NCBI RefSeq assembly: GCF_044704955.1
Contig: NC_091990.1
Coordinates: 177,630,001-177,694,000 of the forward strand
From: Pristiophorus japonicus
Lineage: Eukaryota
Reading direction: 5' to 3'
DNA: 64,000 bases
The position numbers and the translations under genes are program-made. Position 1 is the first letter of the stretch, and each line of letters starts with the position of its first letter. Below, in pieces: positions 1 through 32,877 of this stretch. The notes under the pieces were generated by a model. The model was not told the DNA's origin, made no database searches, and was given only the letters and a program-made list of their open reading frames with translations.

Positions 1-1825
1 CTATAAATATGTGAAGAGAATAAGATTAGTAAAGACAAACGTAGGTCCCTTGCAGTCGGTTTCAGGTGAAATTATAATGGGGAACAAAGAATTGGCAGAC
101 CAATTGAACCAATACTTCGGTTCTGTCTTCACGAAGGAAGATACAAATAACCTTCCGAAGGTACTAAGGGACAGTGGGTCTAGTGAGAAGGAGGAACTGA
201 AGGATATCCTTATTAGGCGGGAAATTGTGTTAGGGAAATTGATGGGATTGAAGGCCAATAAATCCCCAGGGCTTGATATTCTACATCCCAGAGTATTTAA
301 GGAAGTGGCCCTAGAAATACTGGATGCATTGGTGATAATTTTCCAACAGTCTATCGACTCTGGATCAGTTCCTATGGACTGGAGGGTTGCTAATGTAACA
401 CCACTTTTTAAAAAAGGAGGGAGAAAGAAAACGGGTAATTATAGACCGGTTAGCCTGACATCAGTAGTGGGGAAAATGTTGGAATCGATCATGAAGGACG
501 AAATAGCAGCGCATTTGGAAAGCGGTGACAGGATCGGATCAAGTCAGCATAGATTTATGAAAGGGAAATCATGCTTGACGAATCTTCTGGAATTTTTTGA
601 GGCTGTAACTAGTAGAGTGGATAAGGGAGAACCAGTGAATGTGGTGTATTTGGACTTTCAGAAGGCTTTTGACAAGGTCCACACAAGAAATTGTTGTGCA
701 AAGTCAAAGCACATGGTATTGGGGGTAATGTACTGATGTGGATAGGGAACTGGTTGGCAGACAGGAAGCAGAGAGTCGGGATAAACGGGTCCTTTTCAGA
801 ATGGTAGGCAGTGACTAGTGGAGTGCCGCAGGGCTCAGTGCTGGGACCCCAGCTCTTAACAATATACATTAACGATTTGGATGAAGGAATAGGGTGTAAT
901 ATCTCCAAGTTTTAGATGACACTAAACTGGGTGGTGGTGTGAGCTGTGAGGAGGACGAAAAGAGGCTGCAGGGTGACTTGGACAGGTTAGGTGAGTGGGC
1001 AAATGCAGTATAATATGGATAAATGTGAGGTTATCCATTTTGGGGGCAAAAACACGAAGGCAGAATATTATCTGAATGGCGGCAGACTAGGAAAAGGGGA
1101 GGTGCAACGAGACTTGGGTGTCATGGTTCATCAGTCACTGAAAGTGGGCATGCAGGTACAGCAGGCGGTGAAGAAGGCAAATGGTATGTTGGCCTTCATA
1201 GCTAGGGGATTTGAATATAGAAGCAGGGAGGTCTTATTGCAGTTGTACAGGGCCTTGGTGAGGCCTCACCTGGAATATTGTGTTCAGTTTTGGTCTCCTA
1301 GTCTGAGGATTGATGTTCTTGCTATTGAGGAATGCAGCGAAGGTTCACCAGACTGATTCCTGGGATGGCTGGGCTGTCATATGAGGAGAGACTGGATCAA
1401 CTGGGTCTTTATTCACTGGAGTTTAGAAGGATGAGAGGGGATCTCATAGAAACATATAAGATTCTGACGGGGCTGGACAGGTTAGATGTGGGAAGAAAGT
1501 TCCCGATGTTGGGAAAGTCCAGAACCAGGGGACATAGTCTTAGGATAAGAGTAGGCCATTTAAGACTGAGATGAGGAGAAACTTCTTCACTCAGAGAGTT
1601 GTTAACCTGTGGAATTCCCTGCCGCAGAGTTGTTGATTCCAATTCACTGGATATATTCAAGAGGGAGTTAGATATGGCTCTTACGGTTAAGGGGATCATG
1701 GGGTATGGAGAGAAAGCAGGAAAGGGGTACTGAAGAAATGATCAGCCATGATCTTATTGAATGGCGGTGCAGGCTCGAAGGGCTGAATGGCCTACTCCTG
1801 CACCTATTTTTCTATGTTTCTATGT
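1..1825 (+). mobile_element. CR1-clade LINE, 3' part of ORF2 (RT) with frameshifts, plus 3' UTR; runs off the left edge
   Basis: ORF fragments contain [54 protein letters not shown] and RPHLEYCVQFW. The 3' end has the (TTTCTATG)n tandem tail typical of CR1 at 1809-1825. Confidence 0.95.
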
Positions 1826-2857
1826 CCCATCGCGGGACGCAGTGTTCCTTGAGATGGCGTGAATTGCCGATCCCCTTTCCATTGTCCTTGTTGCGGGCCC
1901 ACCCTAGAGCCTGTTGCTGCCTGGTCGGCTTCGAAATGCCCTTGCCTGCCTGCGGGGTCCCGAGCCGCATTCACCATGTTAAGTCCCTGGTCCGTCGTCA
2001 CGTTTGGACCAGGGCTGCAAGCGTAAATTAGCTTGGTCTCCTCTTCCTCTGCCATAAAGGTCTGAGCTATCAACACCGCCCCTTCTAAAGTCAAGTCCTT
2101 AGTCTTTATGAGCTTCCTGAAAATGCCGGCATGATTAATGCCCTCGATGAAAAAGTCCCTTAACATCTCCCCCCTGCAGGCATCAGAGAACTTACAGAGA
2201 CTGGCCAAGCGCCGCAGTTCTGCCACGAAGTCCGAGACATTTTGTCCCTCCCGACGTCGGTGAGAGTAGAACCGGTGCCGGGCCATGTGTACGCTACTCG
2301 CCAGCTTGAGATGCTCACTGATCAGCTGGCTGAGCTCTTCAAAGGACTTGTCCGCCGGCTTTTGGGGTGCGAGCAGGTCTTTCTTCAGCGCATACGTCTG
2401 TGGTCCGCAGCTGGTCAGTAGATGCGCCCTCTGCTTGTCAGCTGCTGTCTCTTCCAGCCAGTCCTTTGTGACAAAGCTCTGCTAGAGTCTTTCCATGAAG
2501 TCGTCCCAGTCCTCGCCCACACAGTAACGTTCCTCTGTGCCACTGGTGGCCATCCTCGTGGTTCAGTGATTCCCATTTCTCGTCGCCAAATGTACTGTCC
2601 CTGCACCTTACTACAAACTCACACGAGGCATGTCTATATCAGACACGGTCACTTTGTGACCTTCACCTTTATTCCCAGGACCAAGGAGTGCTGACCATGG
2701 GTGGGACCTCCCCTTTTATACCTGGAAACCCAGGTGAGGAGTGTCTCCCGCAAGTTCACCCCCTGTGGTCAGGGTATGTATTTCTAGGGTACAGGTACAG
2801 TATGCATGAGTTCCAGTTACATGACTATGTCATTGCAAGACGGTTAAATACATGACA
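1826..2857 (-). mobile_element. Ty3/Gypsy LTR retrotransposon, 5' fragment (5' LTR 2591-2857, PBS, gag N-terminus), cut at 1826 by the CR1
   Basis: Minus strand reads TGTCATG...ACA followed by PBS TGGCGACGAG. The gag text (RFYSHRRREGQNV..FVAELRRLASLCKF...MLRDFFIEGI) is homologous to the elements at 44014 and 52583. Confidence 0.9.
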
Positions 2858-3490
2858 AAGGGAATATTCATTAAATTGTAGGACACTGAGAAGTGTAGAG
2901 GACAAGAGGGACCTTGGACTGCATGGCCACAGATCTCCGAAGGTAGCAGGTAGATAAGGTGGTTAAGAAGGCATATGGGATATTTGCCTTTATTAGCTGA
3001 GGCATAGAATACAAGAGCAGGGAGGTTATGCTTGAACTGTATAAAACACTAGTTAGGCCACAGCTAGAGTACTGCTTGCAGTTCTGGTCACCACATTACA
3101 GGAAAGATGTGATTGCAATGGAGAGCGTACAGAGGAGATTTACGAGGATGTTGCCTGAACTAAAGAATTTTAGCTAGGAGGAAAGATTGGATAGGCTGGG
3201 GTTGTTTTGTTTGAAATAGAGGAGGCTGAGGGAAGACCTAATTAAGGTGTATAAAATTATGAGGGGCCTTTGCAGAGTGGTCAATAACCAGGGGGCATAG
3301 ATTTAAAGTAAGTAGTAGGAGGTTTAGAGGAGATGTGAGGAGAATTTTTTTCACCCAGAGGGTGGTGGGAGTCTGGAATTCACTGCCTGAAAGGTTGGTA
3401 GAGGCAGAACCCCTCATAGCATTTAACAAGTACTTGGATATGGACTTGAAGTGGCTTAACCTACAAGGCTATAAACCAAGAGCTGAAGCT
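2858..3490 (+). mobile_element. Older degraded CR1 LINE 3' fragment
   Basis: RPQLEYCLQFW-like and FFTQRVVGVWNSLP motifs with stops. Confidence 0.85.
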
Positions 3491-4569: not shown

Positions 4570-4947
4570 CTGCAAATCCCCTGGGAGGACAGACACACCA
4601 ACATCAGTGTCCTTGCCCAGGCTAACATCCCCAGCATTGAAGCACTGACCACACTCGATCAGCTTAACTGGGCAGGCCACTTAGTTCGCATGCCAGATAG
4701 GAGACTCCCTAAGCAATTGCTCTACGCAGAACTCCTTCATGGCAAACGAGCCAAAGGTGGGCAGCGGAAACGTTATAAGGGCACCCTCAAAGCCTCCCTG
4801 GTGAAGTGTGACATCACCACTGACGCCTGGGAGACCCTGGCCGAAGACTGCCTGAGGTGGAGAAAGTGCATCCGGGAGGGCGTTGAGCTCTTCGAATCTC
4901 AACGCTGTGAGCATGAAGAGGTCAGGCGCAGGCAGTGGAAGGAGCAT
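4570..4947 (+). mobile_element. RTE-clade LINE fragment (5' half, split by the ERV)
   Basis: MPDRRLPKQLLYAELLHGKRAKGGQRKRYK is a typical RTE ORF C-terminus. The sequence resumes at 13231 and matches the uninterrupted copy at 22417-23075. Confidence 0.92.
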
Positions 4948-5409
4948 TGTCGAGGAAATATTTAGCTTAAATTAACTCAGGCGGAGACTTTCAGAACTGC
5001 ACTTCGAGAGAATTTATTTTAAAAAGCAAGATATATCTCGGAGAGCCTGCTTGGACCTTACCAAGGCAAAACTCTGTCGTACAAGCAAATTGCACTTATC
5101 TTTATACAGAAATTGAATACAGAAATAGAAAAGAATCTTATTCATTAGTCCCGCGAGTACAAAGGTCGTCTCGGGAGGTGCACACTCTATCTGTCCTTGC
5201 ATAGTTTTTCTCTGTTCACAGTCTGTTAAGCAGAATCAAAAGGAGACTCCCTTTTAATACCAGATGGTCATTTAATTGCACCTCTAAGTTTCAAGGCTAA
5301 AAAGCGTGGCTATTTTTCTAGTCTTATTATTTCTTTAAGCATAGCAAAAAACAGAATTTAACCCTTCCCTCTAAATTAAGCCAGGTGTTCATAGTTTCTC
5401 TCTTCCACA
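4948..5409 (-). repeat. ERV 3' LTR (462 bp)
   Basis: Direct repeat of 12769-13230. Minus strand starts TGTGGAAG and ends CGACA, with TATTAAAA at 5252-5259 and AATAAA at 5013-5018. Confidence 0.97.
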
Positions 5410-5420
5410 ATTCCCTCCTT
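5410..5420 (-). promoter_or_regulatory. Polypurine tract (PPT)
   Basis: Minus-strand AAGGAGGGAAT immediately precedes the 3' LTR. Confidence 0.85.
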
Positions 5421-5455
5421 GTTGATCTTTTTATTTTTTAGATCAACACAATTTC

Positions 5456-7530
5456 CTATATTCTCTTCTTGAGCAAAAGGGGGTGTATACCTTCAGGATA
5501 GGGTCGCATTTTGAGATAATCGTCTTCATCAACCTTTTCCTCTAAGCGACTTAACCTTCCTTTCATGCATACACCTTTTCTTTTTATTTCGGAGAGCAGG
5601 CCTATTACTTGACTAATTAAATTTTTTAGTTTTATCCACATTCTGCAAAGGATTATTAATAATACAAGCATAACCACACCTACGATTACTATGGGGTGTA
5701 TAGCGAGCTTCAGTACTGCTGTAGCTTTTGGGGACCATCCGGTAAACATATCCCACCAGTGGTGTACTGTCAAAGAGGTAACTTCATCTGCGATTCTCAC
5801 TAGCTGCCCCTTCTTGTAACTCATTTTGACTCTAAATTGGTGGATGTCTCTGCCTTGCTTTGACAGAGCTTCCTCAATTTTCTTGTCATTACGTATCAAA
5901 TTGTGCAGTCTGGTCAGATTAATTACAGGGGGTAAGGGTTCAATCTTGTGCATAGACAGATCATTTTCTACATTTTGCCACTGCCCAAAGGTATAAGTTC
6001 TTTTTATTTCAGGGTCATACAGGGTGTAGACTCTTCTCACGCATTTATTAATGGGGGGTTTATACAAAATTCCATCCAGATAGACAGGTTTATTTCCTGT
6101 CACACAGATCTCATTCTGTCCTATTTCCGTTATCTCAGTGTCATTTGTTAGCTTTAATTCCCATTTACATACTCCAATGGAGTGCTGCACTGAGCATGGT
6201 TCGTATATGGCGGTCTGATAGGGACATACCATTCCGAATGGCCACCTAGCACATCCCCTCTGGTGATGTGTCATATTCTTCTCATCCACCCAATCTCCTT
6301 TAAATTCTGGGTACCAGAAGTTCTGTCCAAACAGCTGGGGCATTACTTGGAACTGACACCAAATTTCTTTTCGTGTCATACTTACTATCTCTCCAGTAAC
6401 GTTACATCCTTTTGAATTACAACTGGTATATCTTTTTTTGAGGGTTAATGGTTAAATTAAGAAGCTTATCTCTTTTGTTAATTTCCAGCAACCTTTGCCA
6501 TGTGTTAGCATGGAAGGATAATATTTTCCTTTCTAACTTGGCTCTTAATAGCTGTCTGATCATTTCTTTAAACAGGCAATGGGTGTACTTGTTTATTCCC
6601 TGTTGTTCTTTCATTAGGTTCTCTATTTCCTTCTCTATCCCTTCATTCTGTTCCCAGGTCATTTCATTTAGGACGTAACCTGATATCTGTAATTGTTGTA
6701 ATCCTTCATCCCAGACATTCTGATCTTTATATCTTCCCCTACCAGTCCTCCGACGGCCTGGATTTTATTTTGTAGGGTCTCGATATCCATGGAGTTCAAT
6801 GCTCCTATTCCTGCTCCCACTCCACCTAACACAGTCTCTAATACATCCCGTTTCTTTCTTTGGGGGCTTTCTTTTTCAAAAGATACCTTAACACTGGTTG
6901 TGTGGCAAGCATCTTCTTTCTTTGGGGGATATTTAATTCGTATTGTTAGATTTAATACACCTGGGGATCTTACCACTGGGATGCAAGTGGTCAGTATCCT
7001 TTTTAGATGTCCCGGGTCCCGGTCTTCTGGGTGGCCGGATTCTTTTACTGACCATTTTACCACGAATGGGTCTCCTCCATTCACCGGGGTGTTATTCATG
7101 CACAACATCCGCTGCCCTTCTACCATACTTGTAAATGAATAACGGAGGAAGTCTTTTCTCTCGTCCGGCCCTCCTATGTACCCCCATCTCTTGTTTTTCC
7201 CTGTGCTCAGGGTACACTTCATCCACACATCGGCCTGGTATTCTATGAACAACTGATACCCTTTCCCCAATATAAACTGGAATTCCCCTCTTTCTTCCTT
7301 CATTCCACACGCCTCACATCGTGCCGTAAAATTCCCTACTTTACAACTTTGGCCTGCTGGGCATATAAAATTGCCTTGCTGCCTGCACTATTACTTCTTT
7401 CCCATACCATATTTCCCTTCCATACTCTTCCTTCTTTTAGGACTTCTTCCTCCTGTCGGGAGTTCCCTGTTGCTAAAATGATCAGTATACCTAACGTCCA
7501 TTTATAATTTTTCCAAGAGTCCCTTCCCAT
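5456..7530 (-). pseudogene. env: ERV envelope glycoprotein (premature stop at 7336-7338 and two frameshifts)
   Basis: Signal peptide MGRDSWKNYKWTLGILIILATG, furin site RKKR (6848-6859), fusion peptide DVLETVLGGVGAGIGALNS, Cys-rich ectodomain, HHWWDMFTGWSP membrane-proximal motif, TM anchor IVIVGVVMLVLLIIL, and a tail with YLKM. Confidence 0.9.
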
Positions 7531-7657
7531 CTTCCCTTTCTTGTTTGTTTCTATACCACTCTTGAAATAAGTCGTTACAATAATAACACGTCCACACGAT
7601 AGTAACAGTGATCCAAATAATAAAGGCCCAAACTGGCACACAAATGAGCTCTGACAT
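7502..7657 (-). CDS. Putative 51-aa single-pass membrane accessory protein overlapping the env start
   Basis: Open ATG ORF MSELICVPVWAFIIWITVTIVWTCYYCNDLFQEWYRNKQEREDGKGLLEKL lies between the pol stop (7746) and the env ATG (7530). It has a hydrophobic N-terminus and a charged tail. Confidence 0.5.
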   Translation of the reverse strand: MSELICVPVWAFIIWITVTIVWTCYYCNDLFQEWYRNKQEREDGKGLLEKL

Positions 7658-7745
7658 TCGTCCGTGAATTTTGGGCAATATTTTCAAGTCCAAATATTTA
7701 ATACAAGAGCAGGTACAGTTCTTCAGTGAGAAGATGGTTGTTTTC

Positions 7746-10700
7746 TTAGTCGGGCGACCGTAGTACGTCCTGGTTCAATGCCTTTTCCTTCGGCTGTAAT
7801 TCGTCGGGGAAATAATATTTACAGCGGGTCGCATGCACCCAGTTCGGGTGCTTTTCCAACTTCAAAGCGGTTCGTGTTGTGAGAATTATCTGATACGGTC
7901 CTTTTCACCTAGGAGAAAAAGATTCTTTATTTAATGTTTTTACTAACACTTGATCTCCAGGCCTGAAAGGGTGCATATTTCCTTCCGACGGGGCACCTGT
8001 GTCTGCTTTATTTGTTCATGCAGACTCCTTGCTATTTCACACATGGCCTGAGCATACTTTAGTGATTTTTCATCATTCCAAATTAATGCTATTTTTTCAT
8101 CTGTCAGTGGTGGTTTTACGCCAGTAGGCATTGGTCTTCCCAATAAGGCGTCATGTGGTGTCAAATCATTGTTTCGGTTTTTCTGGTTTCTTATTGTATA
8201 CAATACTAATGGTAAGGCTTCTGGCCACTTCAGTCCAGTCTCCTGACATACCTTGGTAAGGGTAGATTTTATTATCCCATTTACTCTTTCTACCATTCCC
8301 GAGGACTGTGGCTGATATGGTATATGTAACTTCCACTGGAACTCTAACGCTTCTGCAAGGTTTTGCACTATTTTTCCGGTGAAGTGTGTTCCCCTGTCAC
8401 TGTTGATTCCCATCGGTATCCCATATCTTGGTACTATTTCTTTAAATAGAATTTTTACTACTGTTCGGGCATCGTCTTTCCTACTGGCGTACGCTTCTAC
8501 CCACCTTGTGAACATATCTACTATGACTAATAGATACTTAAGACCTGATACTGGAGGCATGTGGACAAAGTCAATTTGCAAATTTTCAAAGGGCATACTT
8601 GGTTGGGGTAGATGATCATATCCAGCAGGTGTTTTACCTCTGTTATTTTGCTGACAAATTTGGCATGTCCTAGCAACTTTCTCAATTACTACTGTTATTC
8701 CTGGTGCATACCATTGTGCATTAATAGCATGTATCATCCCTCCTTTGCCCATGTGAGCCTGACCGTGTGCTAGGCGAGACAGGGGCAAAAATAGAGATTT
8801 AGGGCAAACAGTTCGCCCATCAGGGTGATACCAAATGTCGTTTTTTAGAAAACAACCCTGGTTTTCCCAAGTTCTTCCTTCCTGCATGTTAACTTGTTGT
8901 TGGGCTGTTTTAAGTAGTTGGATGTCAAGTACCTGTGGAGGGGAGACTGAGACTGCTTGAAGGCAGTCTGCCTGTGCCGAAGCGGCCTGTTTGGCTGCTT
9001 TGTCAGCCCTCCTATTTCCTACTGATACTTCATCCTCACCGGTTGTGTGAGCTGCACATTTGATAACGGCTACCTTACTTGGCAACTGAATGGCGTCTAA
9101 TAGATTAAGCACCAGTTGAGAGTGCTTAATATGCTTTCCACCAGAGGTGATAAAGCCTCTGTTTTTCCACAGTTGTCCAAAATCATGGACCACACTGAAT
9201 GTATATCTGGAATCAGTATAGATATTAGCAGTTTGATCTTTAGCTATTATACAAGCTCTAGTGAGGGCAAACAATTCAGCAGCCTGAGCCGAGGTTCCGG
9301 GAGGCAGGGCGAATGATTCAACAGTTTCGTGGGGATTTACAATAGCATAGCCTGCCAAAAACAAATCATCCGACGGTCTATGTGATGATCCATCCGGATA
9401 GAGAATAAGATCAGGATTGTCCATGGGCTCTGTGAGCAAATCTGGTCTTGGTAAGGTGGCTACTTCCACCGTTAACAGACAATCATGCTGGCCTGGATCC
9501 TCTACTTCTTTAGTAGGAAGAAAGGTGGCTGGGTTCACTACCGGTGCACATCGAAAGGTATAGTTAGGGTGTGACAGCAGTAATACTTCATGACCTGTTC
9601 TTCGATACGCTGTAAAGTGTTGTGTGGCAGCTGAATTCAAAAGTAATAACACAGCATGGGCTGTAATGACAGTACATGGATGATCCAAAACAATAGATAC
9701 CGACTTCTCCACCATGACCGCAGTAGCAGCTACAGCACGTAGACATGCTGGCATTCCCCTTACTACTGGAGGCAGCAAAACCGAATAATAAGCAACTGGT
9801 CTATCTCCCCCACCATGTTCTTGGGTTAGTACTGCTGTTGCAAATACTGCGGGGCTTTCGGTGTATCCTTGGGGCAGCCTGGTCCATGTGTACTGCTGCT
9901 TCTTGTGGGTCAAAACAAACAGATACTGACTTTCTTGATTTAACGGGATAGAGTAAAAAGCTGAACACATGTCTATTACAGTAAAGACAGTTGCTGTTGG
10001 TGGTATAGCAGATAGTATAATGTTGGTGTCCGGTACCACAGGGGTGATAGGACTACTATCTTATTAATAGCTCTCAAATCTTGCACAAATCTCCATTCAT
10101 TCGGCCTATTAACCTTTGGTATGGGCAGTATCGGAGTGTTACACGGGCTCTGTGTCTTTTCTGAAACTCCTTGTTCCAACAATGCAGAAATTACTGGCTC
10201 TATCCCATTTTCTGCCTCTGGAGGCAGTCTGTACTGCCTAATGCTTGGTAACACGGCGTTCTTTATCAATTGTACCCGATGGGGTACTGCAGAGTGTACT
10301 TGCCCAACATGATTCTTATGCTTTGCCCAAAGTTCATGAGATACTTGATTCAATGCCAGTGGCAGCTTAGGGCTTGGTTGTTCCGGGGGTTGCTGTTTTT
10401 CAAAAGTGGAGGCATGATTTTTACCTTTCCACTGGAGAATCCCCCTGTTGTGGGTGATAAAGTCTATCTGAACATTTTGCAGTTTTATTACTGCCCAAGG
10501 TTGCTGTTTTTCTCTTTCTATTCCTACAATCATCAGACCCATATCTTTAGGTTTCGCTGGCGGTTTTACAGCCAAGGTCAGATGGGGTGTCGAGTTCGCT
10601 TCTCTAAACCGCTGCTGCTGTAAGGGTGTCAAATCCATGGGTACCCCCAATCCTTCTGGTCCAAAATAAATGCGGGGCGTAGCTTCTACTATTTCTTCTC

Positions 10701-11343
10701 TATTTAAAAAGGATTGTACCAAACACTGGTAAGTTTCAGCTTTTTGGCGAGTGTACCAGGCTGTACAGTGAAGCTGAACTGCCTCAAAGCTTGTCAAAAT
10801 TATATCCATCAATTCTTCAGTATTAGAGTCAAATTTAGCTTTTAAGTTTTGTATAACTTCATGTATCAAGGGGGAATAGTAGTTGCCAATCAATTGCCAA
10901 CAATAGAGGGCAGCCTTTTCTTTGTTATCCTCCCTTTTCTCTTTTTTAATCCCATTAAAGAACTGATGAATATTATTTGGAGGGAGCTCCATGTACATTC
11001 CTTCCTTTGTGCAATACATTGTGGCTCCTAGTTTGCACAAAGTCTGTCTTCCCAATAAAGGGAGCGGTGTTGTTTTAGAGACTATCAAAGTCTCATCATT
11101 AACTGATTGTCCTTCAATTATCAATTTGGTAGGTTCAGATAAAAATTCTTTCATGGGGATACCGGCCACACCCATACTTAAGACGGTGGTGTTGCTTACA
11201 GATAATCCCACAGAGGATGGTACAGAAGACATAGTAGCACCGGTATCCACCAGGAACTTTACATAAGTGTCTCCTACTTTTACTACTGCCAGAGGGTTTT
11301 CTTCTATGTCTGCCGATAAGCGGAGGGCTGGCGCCTGTAACAC
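7746..11343 (-). pseudogene. pol: ERV pol: protease, 2H-phosphoesterase-like insert, RT (YxDD region deleted), RNase H, integrase; frameshifts near 10035 and 7970
   Basis: FLVDTGA and LLGRQ (protease); WRFVQDLRAIN, VIDMCSAF and TWTRLPQGY (RT); YPDGSS, SAQAAEL and YTDSRY (RNase H); HGQAH...CQIC, LQIDF, SDRG and MVERVN (integrase); GPYQIIL in the terminal frame. Confidence 0.93.
10399..10911 (-). other. 2H-phosphoesterase (CNPase-like) domain embedded in pol between protease and RT
   Basis: In-frame ~170-aa insert with LHCTA (His codon 10768-10770) and PHLTLA (His codon 10582-10584), 62 aa apart, followed by P.KDMGL. Boundaries are approximate. Confidence 0.8.
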
Positions 11344-11369
11344 TAAGCCTCCTCGGCATCCCTCTGCTG

Positions 11370-12425
11370 ATTATTCTGTGCCTGTCCTCGTCCCTTTTGC
11401 TGATTTACTGACCTGTTTTAGCCATATTTTCCTTATAGGTAAGTAGTCCCTCTCTATCCATGTTAGCCAGTACTGTAACTGTCTCTTTCCAACTTTTTCC
11501 TTGCCAGTCCAAAACCCTTATTTTGTATGTTCTTGCTTGTTGTGGCAACATACAATTTAACAAGGTTTGCACTGCCAAAGGTTCATTTTGATCCATTAGT
11601 ATTCCTGCATGCTCGTCCTAACTATTTTTCCATCTGCCTGCAAAATCTATTCTTCTGCTTTCTGCAAGCAGCGGGTGACTTCCCCTATATCTCCATGCTT
11701 TTTAGCTCCCTTTAATAAATGGTACAGGTTTGCTCAAGCCAGTTGTGAAAGGCTACTGGCTTCTTAACAGGATTAGGGGCAGCTGATATCATATCCCGAG
11801 CTTCTCCCGGTGTCCAGGGCTTTAGGACAGCCGTTGTTCTGATCATTATACGGGGGCTTGTGTCGTGGGGGTAGTGGAGGAATCGGCCTGTTTTATCCAG
11901 CTGAGCGGCCACTATGTCTATGATCTCCTGCCAATCATCCGGCTCGGTGGTTGGAAGACGGGGATATAAGCCGACAGGGGAAGCGGTCAAAACCGGGCCA
12001 CTCGGGGGGGCTGTAAGAGGGAGGGGGCTTCTCCTTACCCTCCTCCTCTTTCTTTTTATTTTTTAAAACAATTCTCCATATAATCTTTATCCCAACTGGG
12101 GTCCCCTGTCCCATTTTTGGTGGTCTGTCTCCATTCCTCAATTAAGGACAATTTAAAACTTCCTCCATATGGCCAATCCCCATCAGACCAACCGTACAAA
12201 TCGCTACTAAACGTTACCGCGTATCTGTCGTCTCCTGTTTCTTTAATTACAGTGTCCGCCGGCGAGCCGGGCGGCACAATGGGATCTCCTACCTTCTCTC
12301 GTTGCTTTACTGATTCTTTTCTCATTCTTAGGATGTACTTTCATTCTTTCAGTTGAGAGGTCGTCCTTCTTTCCTTTTCTAGGAGCTGGGCGCGAGCGCC
12401 CTGCTCGACTAGAGCCGTTTCCCAT
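11370..12425 (-). pseudogene. gag: ERV gag (frameshifted and deleted; no nucleocapsid zinc knuckle seen)
   Basis: MGNGSS myristoylation-type start, WPYGGSF matrix motif, PPSY late domain and a capsid-like KPWTP...PNP segment, spread over several frames. Confidence 0.82.
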
Positions 12426-12743
12426 TCTTCCGGGTGCAACGTCTCGCGATCTTTTCTGAAATGAGAGTTAGAACAATCCTACAAAATATACAATAATTTA
12501 CAAAGCGCTCACCGGTGTTCTCTTTTCTGCTCAGCTCGGGGTCTCCTTTTGCCTTTTTGTTATTTTAGCTTCTTAGCGGTAGCTACCTTATGCCTCACCC
12601 TCTCGGGGATCTCGGCGGCCCATCCCCCTTTCAGCTAGGACGGCCTAGGCACCTTCCTCCTTTCAGCTAGGAAGGTCCTTAAAATTCCTCTTTTCTCTTT
12701 AAAAGTTAAATTTGGTTCTTTTGGATCTCGTTTTTTTTTTAGA

Positions 12744-12763
12744 GATCCTGCCGGACTACGCCA
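12744..12763 (-). promoter_or_regulatory. Primer-binding site complementary to the tRNA-Ser 3' end
   Basis: Minus strand TGGCGTAGTCCGGCAGGAT. The vertebrate tRNA-Ser(AGA/TGA) 3' end is ATCCTGCCGACTACGCCA, a match apart from one extra base. Confidence 0.85.
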
Positions 12764-12768
12764 GAATC

Positions 12769-13230
12769 TGTCGAGGAAATATTTAGCTTAAATTAACTCA
12801 GGCGGAGACTTTCAGAACTGCACTTCGAGAGAATTTATTTTAAAAAGCAAGATATATCTCGGAGAGCCTGCTTGGACCTTACCAAGGCAAAACTCTGTCG
12901 TACAAGCAAATTGCACTTATCTTTATACAGAAATTGAATACAGAAATAGAAAAGAATCTTATTCATTAGTCCCGCGAGTACAAAGGTCGTCTCGGGAGGT
13001 GCACACTCTATCTGTCCTTGCATAGTTTTTCTCTGTTCACAGTCTGATAAGCAGAATCAAAAGGAGACTCCCTTTTAATACCAGATGGTCATTTAATTGC
13101 ACCTCTAAGTTTCAAGGCTAAAAAGCGTGGCTATTTTTCTAGTCTTATTATTTCTTTAAGCATAGCAAAAAACAGAATTTAACCCTTCCCTCTAAATTAA
13201 GCCAGGTGTTCATAGTTTCTCTCTTCCACA
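12769..13230 (-). repeat. ERV 5' LTR (462 bp)
   Basis: Repeat of 4948-5409; one mismatch seen by eye (CTGATAAG vs CTGTTAAG). Confidence 0.97.
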
Positions 13231-13388
13231 AGCATGCGGTAAATCAGTCCCACCAACCTCCCCCCCTTCCCCTGACGAATGTCTGTCCCACCTGTGACAG
13301 GGTGGCTCTCGTGTTGGACTGTTCAGCCACCAAAGAACTCACTTTAGTAGCCTTCCTCCATTCCGAGGGACTGCCTATGATGATAATG
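13231..13388 (+). mobile_element. RTE LINE 3' end (continuation after the ERV)
   Basis: CPTCDR zinc-finger remnant and a GGACTGCCTATGATGAT tail matching the other RTE copies. Confidence 0.9.
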
Positions 13389-15099
13389 CATTAATACAGC
13401 CAAATATGGAGCCCCCAGTAAAACCATAACACAGAAAAACTGCATTCAACCATTAGATCATTTTCACTTAAGTGTAGCATATTGTGACATGACTTGCTTT
13501 ATTATTAATGTGTGTGAGCATTCTGTAGACCTATTCTTCAAGCATTTAACTATGTGCTTATGATTTATTGGATTGGAACAGGTTATGGGGGAGGTGTGGA
13601 GGGGCCCCAAATGTTCTTGGTGTCCAAAGCCAGAGGAAACTTTGAAAGAGCTCTGGGCAGTTGTTTCAGTCCACATGGCAACACACGTGCCACATTTCCT
13701 AGGGGCTATTCACTTCTCCCTCCCTCCCCCTTCCCAATGATTTTTTCAGAGGGATCAGGGACAGGTGCAGACAGAAAACAACTTGTGGATGAGCCCTGTA
13801 TCTTCTCCTCCCTGCTATTTCCCACCATCTGGTCCCATTGGGGTGCATTATTGCTGTTCACCATGTTTCTCATCATTTGTACTCTTCAAATACTGGACTC
13901 TAGGTCCACCTGTTAGGCTCCAGCATTCAGATACCAGCAGAACTGGCTTCAGGTCAAAAAGATGACAGCTCTATACAAAGACTCGCAGAACATGGCCATG
14001 CACAGACGCTGTTAGCTTAAACCTAACAATTTCAATCTTTAAACAGTATTTTAAAACCAGGAAGTTTGCCAACTTTTTATCTTGCTTTCTCTTCCCCTCC
14101 AGGCCTCCCATAGGGGGCGTGACTCAATGGCAGAAACTGGAGATCCTGCCTCCGGTGTGTAAATGGCACTGGTGCCAGATATATTGCTGGAGGCCACAGA
14201 TACCCTTTACCCTGCTGAGTGTTCCAGCATTTTCTGTTTATACTCCATATTATCACCACTTTTTACGTGGCCATTTTGCACTGTACACCTCCCTTCCACC
14301 TTAATGTTATAGTTAAGACATAAAGAGCCGAGCAGAGACTAAGTTATGGAGATCCGTCAGGGGTAGAGAGCCATCTGCTTGAAAGATTCATAATGCTTTC
14401 CCAGAGGATCTGAGGTTTGCTAACAATGAGTATTTGTCAAACTCAAGATGCTTTTCAGATATGAGCTAGAGTTTCCATTATTTTTGCATGCATAACGCCC
14501 ACTTAATGTCCATTTTACCGCTGAAATGAGGTGTAACGCCCAGATATCGCCCATTTTTCGGACACTTATCACCGAGCGTTACTTTCGGCATGTACTAACG
14601 CCGGGCAAAAATAATACCACCCGCCCTCTTTTTTTGGGCAGATCATCAGAATGGGTAAAACTAACGCCCATAATATCGGCCAGCGTTACTTTCGGCACGT
14701 AATTAACGCCGAGATTCAATAATACCGCTCGTCCATTTTATTTTTTGTCGTAAAGATCAAATTTGCCAAAACTAACGCCCAGTATATCGCCCAGCCTCAC
14801 TTTCACCACCTCGCACACATCTCACCCACAATATCGCTCAGCCAAAACACCGCTCAGAAAAAGTGTAACTTTTCTGAACTAATCACAGCGGTGTGGGCGC
14901 CATTTTTCAAATTGCAGGTCGCTTCATTGATAAGGCTGATCCAACTTCGGGGGAGTTTGGATTGATTCTGGAGTTCTTCTCAGGTGAAGTAACCATCTCA
15001 ACAGACATCCTTTCAGACTCTGGGCGATTGGGTTTTACTGTAGGTGTCCTTTAGTGTTGAAATTATTGCTTCTGATCAATCGGTATTATACTTTCAATG

Positions 15100-16302
15100 G
15101 AATGGGGCCAGCCATTTCCCAGCCTGCATCAATTAATGCACTGATGCTGCAGAGTGCTAATGGCACAACGTCAGTGCAGACCATGATGTGCCCAATCTAA
15201 GATGTGCCAGAATGAGGAGGCGGTCCAGGCCATACACACTGCGCACTTACAGAGAGGAGGTCTTACCTCGACGTGTCCGAGAACACCCATCTTTGGAGAC
15301 TGCGCTTCCACAAAGTGGTGATCACTGAAATATGTCAGCTCATCAGGGCAAATCAGTAGCCTGCCATCACCTTCAGGACATCACTGTCCGTCGAGGTCAA
15401 GGTCACCTCTCCACTGTCCTTCTACGCGTCCGGTTCCTTTCGGGCCTCCACGGTCGACATTTCCCCTCTGTCTCACCATGCCACACATCGCTGCATTAGA
15501 CAGGTCACGGAGGCCCTCTACATGCATAGGATGGAGTTTATCAGCTTCCCCATGACCACGGAGGCTCAGACTGACAGGGCTGGAGCATTCTACCACATTG
15601 CTAAGTTCCCCAGGGTGCAGGGAGCAATACAGTGTACTCACATCGCCAAGACCTTCTCAGGACCCAGAGCTTTATTGCAACAGAAAAGGATTTCACTCCC
15701 TGAAGGTCCAACTAGTTATCGACCACAACCGGATAATAATGGCAGTGAATGCCAAATGTCCGGGCAGCTTCGACGAGGCTCACATCCTGCATGAGAGCAC
15801 TGTCTCTGACATGTTTAAGAGTCAGCCATAAGGACAACGCTGGATGCTTGGTGACAACCGATATGGTTTAGCCACCTGGCTGATGACCCCCCCTGCGTGA
15901 ACCCATACCGAGGCCGAGAAGCGATACGAGAGCCACAGAGCCACATGCAATGTGGTCCAGAAAACAATAACTGTGCTTAAGCAGTGCTTTAGATGCCTGG
16001 AGCACTCAGGAGGGGAGCTACAATACATGCCTGAGCAAATAGCTCAACTCGTGGTTGTGTGCTACATGCTGCACAACCTGCCTATCAGGAGGGGACAAGA
16101 ATTGTCAGAAGGGACTGATGGTCCACCTTAGCAGAGAGGAAGAGGAGGATGAGGGGCTGGATGCTGACCTCGGGCCAGACAATCAGGCTGACTATGCAAC
16201 CATGCCCATGCCCCCCCTCCAGACTGCAGGAAAAGGCCCCGTGGTGGCTACATAGCTGCAAGACTTTTATGTAAGCAGCTCATTAATGAACGATTTGCCT
16301 GA
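15100..16302 (+). pseudogene. Harbinger DDE transposase (HARBI1-like), frameshifted
   Basis: Catalytic-region motifs distributed over ORFs 15522-15794, 15598-15831 and downstream, with an acidic C-terminal tail. Confidence 0.85.
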
Positions 16303-16734
16303 AAGAACGTTGCTGTAATTGACAAAGTTGACACATTGCTGTGTGTGTGCAGCTCAGACATCAATGGTGGGCATCATCTTGGTGCCAGTTAAAGTTTAAG
16401 TTGATTCAAGTTAAGTTTAATTTTACCCTTTCATGTTAAGGAATCACCAGTGTGTAACGGTCCAGCTATCTGAGACAATGCGCAACAAGGTTATGTTGAA
16501 TAAAAAACATTTTATAATGACCATTGGTCTGAAATCATAAGTATCATGGGCAAAAACACCCCACTACCACCACCCCACTTTTTCGACCATTGACATCAAT
16601 CAAATGGTCAACATGTCCAGCAACTCAGAATACAAATGTAAAGCAGGAGGGTGACCCCTCCCCCTCATACATTACAACAAATTGCATGCACCGAGATGGA
16701 GATATAACACAGCTATCATCTGCGGACATGCACC

Positions 16735-18482
16735 TTATTTTCCTTCGCCCCTCCCCTTCTTCTCCCCACCTCTACCCCTTCCCCTCCTCGCTCCACGCCA
16801 CCTGGCTGAGGAGCTCCTCAGGCAATGTCTCATTTGGAGGGATGAAGGCAGAGGCGGTGGTTGCATGGGTACAGGAGCGGGGGGTGCCGAGATGGGAACA
16901 TTCTCGGATCCAGAAACAGGATCTTGGTCCTGCCTCTCATGTGTCGTTGGCACTGGTGGTGCGAAACCTAGGAGTGGAGTGCGGTGCTCCGGGACCATTG
17001 GGAGACTTGTGCCAGCAGTGTTCCTGGCTATCACCTCCAGGGCCTCCGCCATCTGTGGAACATACTCAGTCATGGTGTCGGAGATGGTGGCCAGCTGTTG
17101 GGATATGCCCCCCGACGCATTGAGGATCTGGTCAGCAATGTCTACAGTCCTCCTGGACAACTTATCCATCTCTCTGCTCTCATCTGGCGTTCTTGGACCA
17201 GATCTGCCGCGTCCTCTGCAGGGTCAGCGCCATCCTGGGGACAAATGGGGTGCCCTGTGGCGAGGTGCTTGGGCCCGCTACCTCAAGAGTGGAGGAGGGA
17301 ATGGCCGGCGGAGCACTAGATGGCCTTGGGGTGGATGCAGACTCCTCAAATTCGGCGCTCTCATCCGTAGAGAACAGACCCAGCGGATTGACGGGCGAGA
17401 ATCGGAGCTCCTCAGCAGATGTAGGATTGTCTGCCGAGTCCGGCCCCGCACCTCCACCTTCTGGCCTCTGTGGTCTTGCCTTTGGACACGCTGCTGGCTG
17501 AGCTGCAAAACACAAATAAGGTTATTAGAGGAGAAGGTGGTGCGAGGGTCACAAGGCGAGTCCAGCGATACACACAGCATAGGCATGACAAAAGCATCAC
17601 CACTATCAAAATCATCACAGACATCACATTTCATGACCATCAACACATTGTACATTGCAATGATTTTCATTGGGCCAGCATTATTTATAGAACAATTTTA
17701 GAAACCATCTATCATATATTATTGTTCGGATATGAGTGGGTGTGGCATCAATTGACTTTAGATCACACAATGGTGTAAACTTTACCCACGTGGCATCACT
17801 TCAGCGTCTGCAGCTGCTTGCATGGCCATCCGGATGTGCCTCTCCATGAGTGTGAGCACCCGCTCCTCCATGTCAGTGATGTCGCTGGTGACTGGTGGCC
17901 CCCCACCCGTTCGCCTCTGCTCAGACCTCATCGTCGATAGCTTCTTTTGTCAAAGGTAACAGGACGACAAGGTATGAGATCATTGTGTAATATCATTGCT
18001 AGGTACTGTCACAGAAACTGATACAACACATAACCGACAGATGTAATCATGATTATTATGATAATTATCATTGTTTACTTAAAGACGTACACCATGAACG
18101 CAGGCTTTGAGTACAACATTCCCGGTAAAAATGAAACACCTCACATCTGATTATAATCACTCATGACTCTTATAAATCAAATTCTATAAATATATAAGTA
18201 CATGTAAATAAATGTAATACTCTTGTGGATACGACAAGGTCGTTCCATCGCTTGCGGCAATGGTTGCCCTCACGCACCTCGTTGGTCGTCGACGAAACCA
18301 CCTCGGCTATCTCGGCCCATATCTTCTGGTAGGCCTTTGGGGTGGGTTTCCTGTGTCAAATCACCCCAGCAGAACTTGACCTCCTGCAGCAGGGAGCTAT
18401 TTGCCTCGTCCGAGATCCTCCCCGCTCTTTTACGCCCTCCAATGTGCTCCTCTCCCAGCTCACTGCTCTTGTCAGTCTCCAC
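16735..18482 (-). pseudogene. Harbinger Myb/SANT-like DNA-binding gene (intron-containing, degenerate)
   Basis: RKRAGRISDEANSSLLQEV start, RKRWNDL-like helix near 18240, TGGGPP exon near 17900, and a basic C-terminus RGARRGRGRGG. Confidence 0.75.
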
Positions 18483-18932
18483 AGCGGGGAAATATCTGGC
18501 TGGTAACAGCTAATTTTTTTTTCTCAATTTGCTATAAAGCTCGAAACTCTTCCTCCTTCCTCCCAAAGCAGCCACACCACACCCACACATGCCTTCACTC
18601 CCTCTCAGCTCCCTCTCTCTCTGTCTCCTCTTATGTGCATGTCATGATGACCCTTGACCTCCTGAAGCAAGCGTTGCTATACTGTTGCTAAGGACGGTGA
18701 CACTTTACGGCAGAAAGTCAGAGAGATTTAACGCTAACGTCCATTTCATATCGCTCGCAGTAATGCCCAATTTCAAAAATGGAGACAAGGGACTTTGAGA
18801 TTGGGCGACAAGCCGGCGATCTGAAAACCCATTTTTACTGCCCACGCCGGAAATAACACCCATTTTTTGGCGATCTGCACAAAAGTGTAAAATTTAGCCC
18901 CATATCATTGACCTCATCAGGGGAAAGGTCCT

Positions 18933-20250
18933 GGGGCTGGATTTTCAGTTAGAGGTTTCTAAGGGCGCTAATGGCGGTGGATCGATAAATTTAGCACCCT
19001 ATAAAAGTTTGCGTCTCCATCCAGAAAATTCACCCGAAACTCAGTGACAATGATCAGCGGCGCTAAATCAGATGTTACACACCTGTGCTTGACCACCCCA
19101 ACCGAAAACTGCCATGCAAAAAAAACTCCTATCCTTGAGCATGCGCAGAGGCGTGCTTTATCTCCCCAAGTCAGCCGTGTGTTTAGGGCGCGGCAATATA
19201 AGTTTGGGCCTGTGCACTTCGAACAGAGCAGGAGAAATGGCGCAGCAGGAAGGATGCCAGAGAGCACGCTGCTTCCCTGTCATGGCTGCTGAGGCACTAA
19301 TACAGGCCTTTGAGAGGAGGTGGCCTGCCTTGCATCTTGCTGGAGGAAGGAGGCCCCTGCCAAGAGTGTTTTGGAGGATTTGGAAGGAGATTGCACAGGA
19401 GATGTCCGCGACAGACACGGTGCCTAGAACTGCTACCCAACGTCGCAAGAAGTTTAACGATCTCACGAGGGTCGTCAGGGCGTGTACCCTTTACATTTAT
19501 GCAGCCCTGCCATGGTTGCAACATCACTGTCTCACACAATGTAAAGTCTTTGACGGAGCTGCCCCTTCTCCATGTGTTCCAGGCCATGGTGTGGTTTGGT
19601 GAAGCCACCTGAAAGCTAGAGGCTCAGTTCACCAGCCATGCCCTCTGTATTCAGGCGGTGCGGACCCTCTTGTCCCCTATTCATTTTCACCCCTCCTCGC
19701 ACTACCCTTTGACTCTTGATATGTGTTGGCCAAGTGTCACCCTGAGCCGCAGTCCTAGCTGGCTTCCCACCTGGTCAGTGCACAGCCACACAGATTATAA
19801 TGCACATCTTTACACTTCCAAACAGTAGCAGCTAATCTACAATGGAAAGCACATGTGCCACACGATGAGCTGCACACTCACTGACACCTTCTTCTTGTTC
19901 TTATTGTTGGCAAAATTGGCGCATAATCGCCGGGAGCAGCAGTGGACCGGAGGTGGAGAGCCTGATCTGTAGCACCTCACTGAGATGGAGCAGCGAGTGT
20001 CGGCCCTCATCGGCACCCCAGTTTGTGCGGTGACGTCCGGTGAGGCAAACCCCTCTATGGGTAGTGAAGATATGTGAATGGCGTTAGCGATTTATAAGTT
20101 TCTTGACCCCAATATCAAGTAGACTACACCCTTTACATATAGATGTCTAATGCCACTTTCATCTTATCTCCCTGCCCCCTCGGCTGCTGCTAACCACACG
20201 TCTGTTGCTTTGTGCTTACAGATGACCAGCCAAAAGCGCAGTAGCCTACC
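18933..20250 (+). mobile_element. Harbinger remnant carrying Myb/SANT gene fragments
   Basis: GGGGCTGGATTTTC TIR-like start; ALIQAFERR...IWKEIAQEM..PRTATQRRKKFNDLTR; next exon KLAHNRREQQWTGGGEP. Confidence 0.78.
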
Positions 20251-22224: not shown

Positions 22225-23640
22225 GGCCCAGATTTTGCGGTCAGCGGCGAAAGAACAACACTCGCCGTTTACAGCTTATAGTTGGTATGACTGCACTGGG
22301 TTGTGGGTGAGTTTAAGGGGTGGTTAGTGAGATGTGGATGCAACAATGTAGTTGGAGAGAGAGGGATGGGTGGAGATGCAAGGTACGCTGGTGTGAGTAA
22401 GGATGTGCAGGAGTAGCTCATGGTCTACAGGGCTGTAGTAATACCCACCCTCTTGTATGGATCAGATGCATGGACACTGTACAGAAGACACCTCAAGTCG
22501 CTGAAGATATATCACCAACGATGTCGCCGCAAGATCCTGCAAATTCCCTGGGAGGACAGGCGCACCAACATCAGTGTCCTTGCCCAGGCTAACATCCCCA
22601 GCATTGAAGCACTGACCACACTCAATTAGCTTCTCTGGACAGGCCACATAGTTCGCATGCCAGACACGAGACTCCCTAAACAATTGCTCTATGCGGAGCT
22701 CCTTCATGGCAAACGAGCCAAAGGTGGGCAGCAGAAACGTAACAAGGGCACCCTCAAAGTCTCCCTGGTGAAGTGCGACATCACCACTGACACCTGGGAG
22801 TCTCTGACCGAAGACTTCCCTAGGTGGGGAAAGTGCATCCGGGAGGGCATTGAGCTCTTCGAATCTCAACGCCGCGAGCGAGAAGAGGTCAGGCGCAGGC
22901 AGCGGAAGGAGCTTGTGGCAAATTGGTCCCACCCACCCCTTCCCCCGACAAAAGTCTGTCCCACCTGTGACAGGGTCTGTGGCTCCCCTATTGGACTGTT
23001 CAGCCACCAAAGAACTCACTTTAGAAGTGGAAGCAAGTCTTCTTCGATTCAGAGAACTGCCTATGATGATGATGATGCAGGAGTAGGGTAGGGAAGACAG
23101 AGTGATGGGGATGTGATGATAGGAACAGGAGGATGAAGCGGAGTGTGACTTTGTACTAACGTTTCGTGATCTACTGAGATCATTGAAAGGTTTGCGCCAC
23201 TGCACCCAGGTCCTCCTGACGACAGCCCTGCTTGTGACCTCCTCTGCAATGTGCAACCAGGCTGTGTTGGTCTTCTGGGGATGTCTCTTCTGCCCATAGG
23301 AAGGGACGAGGACCTCCTTGTATGCTATGAATCCCTCCATAAGCATATAGAGGGAGTCATGGGAGAACTTGGATGCAGCCCTACACCTCTGTGCAGTGAT
23401 TGTCAGTATTTGCAGCACCTCAGTGCTGTAGACCACTGACAGCACAACTGTAAAATCAATGTGGACAAGGTCCCTTTAAGGAAATTGGCTGATGACCTGT
23501 CATCAAATTACATCACCAGAACTATTTCCTCTAATTGCACTGGGAAACACGCTGGGCAGGCTTTAAAAGCCCCATCAACGTAAGTGCCTTTTAGGCAGTG
23601 GTATGGAACCAGCAGCGGGGTGCAATGTGCCAAGATAGGA
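22225..23640 (-). mobile_element. Harbinger-derived Myb/SANT remnant interrupted by an RTE
   Basis: ASKFSHDSLYMLMEG...AWLHIAEEVTSRAVVRRTWVQWRKPFNDLSR is a Myb/SANT-like motif. Confidence 0.7.
22417..23075 (+). mobile_element. RTE LINE 3' fragment with TSD (TGCAGGAGTAG)
   Basis: VYRAVVIPTLLYGS..W, LPKQLLYAEL, CPTCDRVC...GLFSHQRTH, (GAT)n tail, and a flanking direct repeat. Confidence 0.92.
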
Positions 23641-24080: not shown

Positions 24081-25151
24081 ATTAGTGTGAATAGAGGATT
24101 GGCCAACTAACAGAAAACGGTGAGTCAGGATAAATAAGTAATTACAGGTTGGCAAACTGTAACTAGTGGGGTGCCACAGGTTCAGTACTGGGGCCTCAAC
24201 TATTTACAATCCATATTAATGACTTGGATGAAGGAACCGAGTGTAATGTAGCCAAATTTGCTGATGATACAAAGATAGGTGGGAAAGCAAGTTGTGAGGA
24301 GGATGCAAAGTATTTGTAACGGGATATAGATAGGTTAAGTCAGTGGGCAAAAATTTGGCAGATGGAGTATAATGTGGAAAAATGTGAGGTTATCCGCTTT
24401 GGTAGGAAAAATAAAAGTGCAAATTATTATTTAAACGGGGAGAGATTCCAAAATTCTGTGGTACAGAAAAGGGGGTCCTTGTACATGAAACACAAAAAGT
24501 TAGCAAGCAGGTACAACAAGTAATTAGGAAGGAAAATGGAATTTTTGCCTTTATTGCAAGGGGGATGGAGTATAAAAGTAGGGAAGTCCTGCTACAACAG
24601 TACAGGGTGTTGGGCATTGGTGTATAGTTTTGGTCTCCTTATTTATGGAGGGATATACTTGCATTGGAAGCAGTTCAGAGAAGGTTCACGAGGTTGATTC
24701 CTGAGATGAAGGGGTTGTCATATGAAGAAAGGTTGAGCTGTTGGGTCTATATTCATTGGAATTTAGAAGACTGAGAGGTGATCTTATTGAAACATATAAG
24801 ATTCTGAGGGGCTTGACAAGGGAGATGCAGAGAGGATGTTTCCCCTAGGGGGCATAGTTTCAGAATAAAGGGTCGCCCATTTAAAATGGAAATGAGGAGG
24901 AATTTCTTCTCTCAGAGGGTCGTGAATCTTTAGAATTCTCCGCCCCAGAGAGCTGTGGAGGCTGAGTCATTGAAAGTATTTAAGGTGGAAATAGACAGAT
25001 TTTTGAGCGATAAGGGAGTCAAGGGTTATGGGGAGTGGGCAGGGAAGTAGAGTTGAGGTAAAGATCAGATCAGCCATGATCTTATTGAATGACGGAGCAG
25101 GCTCGAGGGGCCAAATGGCCTACATCTGATCCTACTTTTTATGTTCTTATG
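24081..25151 (+). mobile_element. CR1 LINE 3' fragment, degraded
   Basis: GVPQ.SVLGP, FADDTK and a TTATGTTCTTATG tail. Confidence 0.9.
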
Positions 25152-27670: not shown

Positions 27671-27673
27671 ATA

Positions 27674-27940
27674 GTCACTGTTATTATGGAGGCAAAAACA
27701 ACAGCTACCTTACAAATAGCAAGGTCCCACAAACAATAATGTGATAAATGCGCAATTAATCTGTCTTAGTGGTTGAGGGATAAATGTTGACCAGGGTACC
27801 AGCAGCACTCCATTCCTCTGCTTCTTAGATAGTGCCATGGAATCTTTTACATCCAGCTGAGCAGGCAGGCTATCAATTTACAGTCTCATCTAAATAACGA
27901 CACCTTCATCAGCGTGGCACTCCTTCAGTACTGTGCTCAG
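27674..27940 (-). mobile_element. Degraded Deu-type SINE fragment (minus strand)
   Basis: Reverse-complement similarity to the body of the SINE at 41780-42241. Confidence 0.55.
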
Positions 27941-28068
27941 GTCACAGCTTTCTACTTAACAAAGCAGATTGACGGCACGCACCCAGAGTGCAAATTGCTA
28001 CCCCATTCAGAACGCAAGATAAATGGTATGGAGAATGGATATTTCACTGCTGCAATAGTAGATGTGTT

Positions 28069-32299: not shown

Positions 32300-32330
32300 T
32301 ACAGTCTCTGTCTTATCTGTTGGTTTTCTT

Positions 32331-32362
<32 letters not shown>

Positions 32363-32790: not shown

Positions 32791-32877
32791 GAATTTTCTT
32801 GATTTATGAGATTTAAATCATTTTGTTCTATCTTTATTTACTGAAAGCTCTTAAGAAGCTAGATTCCTTGGAAGACG

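Follow-up and report, generated by a model that had tools for sequence, protein, structure and literature searches.

Some retroviruses of fish are known to carry a domain of the 2H phosphoesterase superfamily in their polyproteins. Certain epsilon-like endogenous retroviruses (ERVs) of ray-finned fish encode a CNPase (PMC4977317, citing Basta 2009), and 2H domains are described for fish retroviruses including walleye dermal sarcoma virus (WDSV; PMC9503650, citing Mazumder 2002); here and below, papers given by a PMC or bioRxiv number are cited from excerpts. In this study, a stretch of 64,000 nucleotides from the sawshark Pristiophorus japonicus (contig NC_091990.1, positions 177,630,001 to 177,694,000; referred to as the window) was analyzed, which contains a provirus on the minus strand (4948-13230) with such a domain inside its pol gene. 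The element resembles the fish ERVs and WDSV, as these are described in reviews, in being a class I retrovirus with a CNPase-type 2H domain. It differs from them in its cartilaginous host, and sharks are not mentioned for the domain in the excerpts of PMC4977317 and PMC9503650. The terms CNPase and phosphodiesterase do not occur in a paper on elephant-shark ERVs, and the excerpted text of a survey (bioRxiv 2025.08.21.671373, supplements aside) has no occurrence of 'retrovir' and no retroviral 2H member. A functional test of a retroviral Pol 2H domain was not found in literature listings and abstracts, subscription papers not being covered. The kind of domain is therefore already known from fish retroviruses, as an earlier sequence-based reading of this locus (the original prediction) had noted, and the shark element adds a member. 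The domain is under purifying selection in the shark family and is predicted to be of the CNPase type, with 2',3'-cyclic phosphates as its probable substrates.

The pol frame of the provirus (9979-11370 from stop to stop, minus strand, 464 amino acids) comprises the protease, the insert and the start of reverse transcriptase (RT). Landmarks on the minus strand are the protease motifs DTG at 11247 and GRQ at 11052, the sequence PAKPKDMGL at 10560 and the RT motif PCNTP at 10146. The paired HxT motifs that the original prediction had placed between protease and RT are present at 10770 (HCT) and 10584 (HLT), 62 amino acids apart, on the minus strand. The features of the insert are as follows.

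10387..10929, minus strand: predicted CNPase-type 2H phosphoesterase domain (model residues 8-188 against mouse CNPase 160-378)
10762..10770, minus strand: catalytic motif 1, H-C-T, aligned to CNPase His230-x-Thr232 (numbering of PMC4643303)
10576..10584, minus strand: catalytic motif 2, H-L-T, aligned to CNPase His309-x-Thr311
10510..10566, minus strand: predicted b5-a7 loop and helix a7 (DSSP of the model; alignment to CNPase/RICH)

When the 171-amino-acid segment is shuffled 20,000 times, 0.3% of the sequences contain two HxT/S-hydrophobic motifs at a distance of 50-90 amino acids. The spacing between protease and RT is 303-378 amino acids in the 24 related Pols that have the domain and both landmarks, and 160-201 amino acids in 54 of 56 related Pols lacking the domain. 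The longer spacing in carriers identifies the domain as a true insert.

An AlphaFold2 model of the domain was built on a 33-row alignment (pLDDT 83.1, pTM 0.78; termini of low confidence). Secondary structure assignment of the model by DSSP places the two motifs on strands E61-67 and E123-128, followed by helix H135-147, and the bilobed 2H architecture with the motifs on central strands is predicted. The 2H fold and the likeness to CNPase, both proposed in the original prediction, are borne out at the level of the model. CNPase or RICH structures occupy every listed Foldseek rank from 1 to 49 (best E 1.5e-8, TM ~0.7), and 2H members head the list of a VIA-align comparison with 48,161 chains. 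There, mouse CNPase reaches a Z score of 17.6 over 180 aligned residues (root-mean-square deviation 3.0), while the next best score is 7.9. The runners-up are bacterial CPDase/LigT (7.3-7.9) and plant CPDase (7.2), and lower or equal scores are found for Acb1 (7.2), ns2 (6.8), VP3 (6.6), the phage phosphodiesterase (PDE) PDE-9 (6.6), AKAP18 (6.2-6.3) and penguinpox PDE (5.7). It is thus almost certain, as far as a predicted structure allows, that the insert has the 2H fold of vertebrate CNPase.

Profile searches point in the same direction. A 6-row profile of the domain gave 23 matches at E<=10 among PDB sequences, 22 of which are CNPase or goldfish RICH (best E 0.004, both motifs aligned), and it matched the CNP exon of the host itself over 47 columns (E 3e-4, probability 39%). 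The top matches in the ESM Atlas are the 2H families tRNA_lig_CPD and 2H-SAK, both weak and with a recognition value below threshold. A search of PDB with the single sequence found no 2H match, nor was any found when the domain by itself was queried against a word index of longer proteins. With the CNPase catalytic domain and goldfish RICH (2xmi, 1woj, 2i3e; PF05881), the insert shares the predicted fold over 180 residues, the HxT pair, the b5-a7 loop, helix a7 with its conserved Gly and the aromatic residue after motif 1. The Gly follows the second His at a distance of 15 residues, as it does in CNPase. The aromatic residue, five residues after the first His (as Phe235 in CNPase), occurs by hand count in 23 of the 28 relatives that have both motifs. 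In contrast to CNPase and RICH, the shark domain lacks the N-terminal PNK-like domain, the CAAX tail and the equivalent of Arg307, and it is part of a viral polyprotein. Abstracts of CNPase papers describe the physiological substrate of CNPase itself as unknown. Vertebrate CNPases share helix a7, which other 2H enzymes are reported to lack (PMC4643303), and in CNPase this helix blocks the side at which enzymes cleaving 2',5'-oligoadenylate (2-5A) bind their ligand (PMC5283653). By the DSSP assignment and the alignments to CNPase, helix a7 is predicted in the insert as well, and an open 2',5'-ligand side is not expected.

The distribution of the domain was assessed with an iterated profile in Pol-like relatives, 120 of which are listed out of 174 past the cut-off. 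The profile is matched by 37 of the 120 and by five short proteins from a representative search. One of the seven matches of that search, the calpain-like repeat protein P0122, was discarded as chance. The labels of the carriers include many teleosts, bichir, newt, hagfish and skate. Both motif positions are covered by 38 relatives, 28 of which keep both motifs at ~14-32% identity to the window domain; four further relatives are partial. The closest Pols among the matches listed are teleost ERVs, with 42-47% identity over protease, 2H domain and RT. In a quick RT tree of 122 rows, teleost elements are the sister group of the shark family (SH-aLRT 92, together with a newt element), the backbone of the tree being poorly resolved with many open nodes. 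Carriers and non-carriers interleave in this tree, and one gain with losses or repeated exchange both fit the pattern. A WDSV sequence is absent among the listed Pol matches. The domain is an old feature of class I (epsilon-like) retroviruses of aquatic vertebrates. As a side observation, the relatives P0003, P0006-P0008, P0010-P0012, P0041 and P0066, several of them in long open Pols, retain the domain but lack a catalytic His or Thr and are candidate pseudo-enzymes; in the sister clade, such a loss occurred on more than one branch.

To characterize selection on the domain, 40 copies were picked from the host genome by their integrase and not by the domain, 32 of which cover the domain. The copies form two subfamilies with ~82% identity in DNA. 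The ratio of replacement to silent differences (pN/pS) in the domain is 0.32 (95% 0.24-0.41), measured on pooled, non-independent pairs without multiple-hit correction. All 38 copies that reach motif 1 and all 37 that reach motif 2 have the motif intact, so that the conservation on which the original prediction had staked its reading is observed. Frameshift counts for these copies were disregarded, as they contain alignment artefacts between the subfamilies. When one copy per subfamily is compared, the amino acid identity of the domain is 70%, against 87-92% for the core enzymes. The 37 codons of the two motif blocks, which were picked post hoc, contain 9 silent changes between the subfamilies and no replacement; in fixed 9-residue windows around each His, one change in 18 residues is found (p 0.015). 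The absence of replacements from the motif blocks and the fixed-window result show selection on the active site at the protein level. Earlier pN/pS values (2H domain 0.37, protease 0.32; 27/30 loci, three tandem duplicates dropped) were not relied on, as those copies had been picked by likeness of the domain.

A search of the host genome (5.9 Gb) with the domain gave 1,274 candidates. The 150 of them that were scored are 91-100% identical, a database protein labelled Pristiophorus japonicus is 98% identical in RT, and in some genomic copies the domain lies within a long pol frame that is still open. The second subfamily, spread over many contigs, contains dozens of copies with equal integrase score and shows recurrent RT deletions that spare protease and 2H domain, which together indicate a very recent burst with non-autonomous derivatives. 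In addition, contig C3 carries about 30 domain matches at ~5.35 kb spacing (232761897-232920440), where a provirus unit with deletions is repeated in a long tandem array, and smaller arrays are located on contigs C10, C11 and C37.

The explanation favored here, which as a whole is more likely correct than not, is that the Pol domain acts as a CNPase-type 2',3'-cyclic-nucleotide 3'-phosphodiesterase that clears cyclic-phosphate ends of RNA. Its more general part, a 3'-phosphodiesterase activity on 2',3'-cyclic phosphates, is probable in view of the modelled fold. Processing of such ends had been named in the original prediction as an alternative, and fold and helix a7 support it better than cleavage of 2-5A or cGAMP; it has also been suggested for some 2H domains of RNA viruses (PMC9503650). 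In working members of the family, the domain would be made within Gag-Pol by read-through of the gag stop, as predicted for WDSV (PMC3185560), and would enter virions with RT and integrase, the protease either freeing it or leaving it attached to RT. Using the two-His mechanism described for CNPase, it would convert cyclic-phosphate RNA ends and 2',3'-cyclic nucleoside monophosphates into 2'-phosphates. In the virion or the entry compartment, it could in this way clear the cyclic-phosphate products that metal-independent host RNases generate from viral RNA and tRNA. The most plausible benefit would be a reduced sensing of these products or the recovery of usable 3'-OH ends. Because of the closeness of the predicted folds, the domain was probably captured from a host CNP gene.

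A more specific counter-defence may be proposed, though it is speculative and rather unlikely: a virion CNPase could destroy 2',3'-cGMP and purine-cyclic-phosphate RNA fragments, which are TLR7/TLR8 ligands. 2',3'-cGMP is reported as the natural ligand of TLR7 pocket 1, and the natural TLR7/TLR8 ligands arise in endolysosomes through the action of RNase T2 and PLD3/4 (PMC11470960). Such ligand erasure fits a CNPase-type site as well as carriers without OAS-RNase L.

Several observations weigh against a CNPase-type enzyme that matters to the virus. Neither the domain nor 18 relatives have a match to the Pfam CNPase family (PF05881) at the gathering score, identity to CNPase is just 14-20%, and the equivalent of Arg307 is not kept; with regard to Pfam, the domain is a divergent homologue and not a member at that level. 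A His or Thr/Ser is lost in 10 of the 38 relatives, some of them in long open Pols (an alignment artefact may account for P0099), which means that some lineages can do without catalysis. Selection on the domain is weaker than on protease (pN/pS 0.16), RT (0.10), RNase H (0.14) and integrase (0.10). Derivatives deleted for part or all of the domain were copied, which shows that it is not needed in cis, and only this. Furthermore, the host already has a single CNP gene (contig C21:4663645-4668531), and 2H enzymes are reported to switch substrate easily (bioRxiv 2025.08.21.671373).

Part of these observations would also be expected if the domain were mostly a non-catalytic module of Pol, binding RNA or protein or serving as a spacer, for example as a decoy for host CNP. 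Mammalian CNP is an interferon-stimulated restriction factor that binds Gag and restricts HIV-1 assembly (PMC10761555), the 10 relatives that have lost catalytic residues still keep the domain, and its pN/pS exceeds that of the core enzymes. Such a role is nevertheless unlikely as the general explanation: 28 of 38 relatives retain both motifs at low overall identity, constraint within the shark family is strongest in the motif blocks, and Asp72, the residue by which CNP binds Gag (PMC10761555), lies outside the range aligned here (CNPase 160-378).

The headline of the original prediction was a viral antagonist of nucleotide second messengers. In one form, a 2',5'-phosphodiesterase would destroy 2-5A and block OAS-RNase L in the manner of coronavirus ns2 and the C-terminal domain (CTD) of rotavirus VP3. 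This is improbable. Mouse hepatitis virus ns2 (4z5v), VP3-CTD (4rpt/6o3v) and AKAP7 belong to the same superfamily and share the 2H fold with two HxT/S motifs, but their Z scores are only 6.2-6.8 against 17.6 for CNPase, and they bind ligand on the side that is blocked by a7 in CNPase (PMC5283653) and predicted to be so here. The host range argues likewise. OAS-RNase L is reported to have probably arisen after the split from jawless fish, with losses in the ancestors of ray-finned fish and of frogs plus salamanders (PMC10400998). The 28 relatives with both motifs have 15 named and 13 unnamed hosts (the label of P0017 is ambiguous), and 13 of those named fall into groups for which absence of the pathway is reported, namely ray-finned fish (11), newt and hagfish, the other two being skate records. 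None of 38 amniote-labelled Pol matches carries the domain (hand count; some are truncated and the relatives are non-independent). This pattern is the reverse of that predicted for a dedicated 2-5A antagonist. In favor of it, cartilaginous fish have an OAS-RNase L pair that works in yeast tests (PMC10400998), and the host genome contains an OAS cluster of about five units with 16 matches (contig C8:218423330-218595169). A search of the host genome for the RNase L family matched IRE1-like exons only, which weighs neither way. A lineage-specific switch to 2-5A may have occurred in some members.

Hydrolysis of cGAMP or other cyclic dinucleotides in defence against cGAS-STING, as by Acb1 or penguinpox PDE, is if anything even less probable. 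Reverse transcripts are plausible cGAS ligands, which counts in its favor. Animal viruses are also reported to use 2H enzymes for this purpose (bioRxiv 2025.08.21.671373). Acb1 (7t27), phage PDE-9 (9q2y) and penguinpox PDE (9bkq) are virus-encoded members of the same superfamily, but they bear a lid and have a different core, and their match to the model is weak (Z 5.7-7.2 against 17.6 for CNPase); the termini, where a lid would sit, are of low confidence. Since the core and not the lid is reported to set the substrate class (bioRxiv 2025.08.21.671373), a predicted core of CNPase type with a7 closing one side speaks against this activity. Taking fold and host range together, antagonism of 2-5A or cGAMP is unlikely, and the favored reading of the domain as a 2',3'-cyclic-nucleotide 3'-phosphodiesterase is retained. 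That the motifs are coincidental or the insert a neutral leftover of proviral decay, as a defective and probably untranslated window copy and the missing Pfam and single-sequence PDB matches might suggest, is refuted at the family level by the confident CNPase-fold prediction with its Foldseek and VIA-align matches, by motifs kept across vertebrate classes and by a pN/pS well below 1, leaving this explanation a negligible chance.

The provirus that surrounds the domain has two long terminal repeats (LTRs) and the following further features.

12769..13230, minus strand: 5' LTR, 462 bp, TG...CA, one mismatch against the 3' LTR
4948..5409, minus strand: 3' LTR, 462 bp, preceded by a purine-rich tract in viral sense
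13231..13235, no strand: target-site duplication of 5 bp adjoining the 5' LTR, identical to 4943-4947
4943..4947, no strand: target-site duplication of 5 bp adjoining the 3' LTR, matching 13231..13235
12746..12763, minus strand: primer-binding-site-like stretch, starting with TGG 5 nt past the 5' LTR (judged by sequence)
11371..12340, minus strand: gag remnant, frameshifted, with internal deletions and the zinc-knuckle end gone
11017..11304, minus strand: retroviral aspartyl protease (Pfam PF00077, E 2.9e-9; DTG at 11247)
9840..10250, minus strand: 5' portion of RT, interrupted by a frameshift (near 10051) and a ~0.5 kb deletion (near 9840)
8981..9412, minus strand: RNase H (Pfam PF00075, E 4.4e-22)
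8309..8803, minus strand: integrase zinc finger and core (Pfam PF17921, PF00665)
5459..7683, minus strand: env in several frames, with a furin-like RKKR at 6859 and a hydrophobic stretch near the 3' end

The family shows the order LTR-gag-pro-pol-env-LTR, the sequence of RT, connection, RNase H and integrase, and an in-frame stop between gag and pol, which are features of class I (gamma/epsilon-like) retroviruses. The stop is visible at the gag-pol border in 23 of 29 siblings, and the nearest Pols are those of fish class I ERVs with an integrase C-terminal domain of the murine leukemia virus type. The Pfam protease match corresponds to residues 23-118 of the open reading frame. A zf-CCHC match is present in sibling gags. 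The env region gave no match in Pfam, PDB or word-index searches. It also encodes a Gly/Ala-rich peptide, a heptad-like stretch and a long Cys-rich ectodomain; by ESM Atlas features, clusters of Monjiviricetes/gB/rhabdovirus-G (class III) fusion proteins rank top for its 3' piece (0.95, 200/256 shared). Despite this class III ranking, its anatomy resembles class I (F-type envelopes), which is to be taken as a lead only.

The window copy is defective, with gag, RT and env broken, and cannot make Gag-Pol as it is. The deletion near 9840 has removed the YxDD region of RT. The RT lesions are common to many siblings and were therefore inherited, by a derivative copied in trans. The original prediction had stressed that both motifs are intact while most other genes are damaged. 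Both statements are correct, but they carry little weight: with a single mismatch between the two LTRs over 462 bases, decay has had little time, and intact motifs are weak evidence for this copy. The domain itself is altered: an in-frame gap of 12 nt near position 10501, after helix a7, reduces it to 513 nt, against 525 nt in each of the 29 siblings compared. The gap is shared by 2 of 40 further copies and falls where the length of the domain varies across families. Most likely, the window copy is a recently inserted passenger that makes no enzyme.

Other mobile elements lie elsewhere in the window. Three related Ty3/gypsy-like LTR elements are located at 44013-48695 (plus strand), 52728-57302 (plus strand) and ~59570-61580 (minus strand), two of them in tandem with their own LTR pairs and one inverted. 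Harbinger-like remnants are found at ~14800-19600 and 22465-23475, among them a piece of a DDE_Tnp_4 transposase (15556-15828) and Myb/SANT domains (19093-19599, 22465-23475). Endonuclease-RT fragments of long interspersed elements (CR1/L2-like) lie within 1-3300 and 24179-35674, the longest frame being 29642-31648 on the minus strand.

The structural result shifts the substrates to be considered first for this domain, which stands without Pfam annotation in Pol, from 2-5A and cGAMP to 2',3'-cyclic nucleotides. Being a small and soluble homologue from a virus, and occurring naturally in active as well as His-less variants, it offers a handle on both the viral domain and the substrate of CNPase. 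Erasure of the TLR7 pocket-1 ligand, if true, would be a new viral counter-defence. If the domain is active, it would add to retroviral Pol a fifth enzyme activity, which selection has maintained in elements of sharks, bony fish and amphibians and in those labelled as hagfish.

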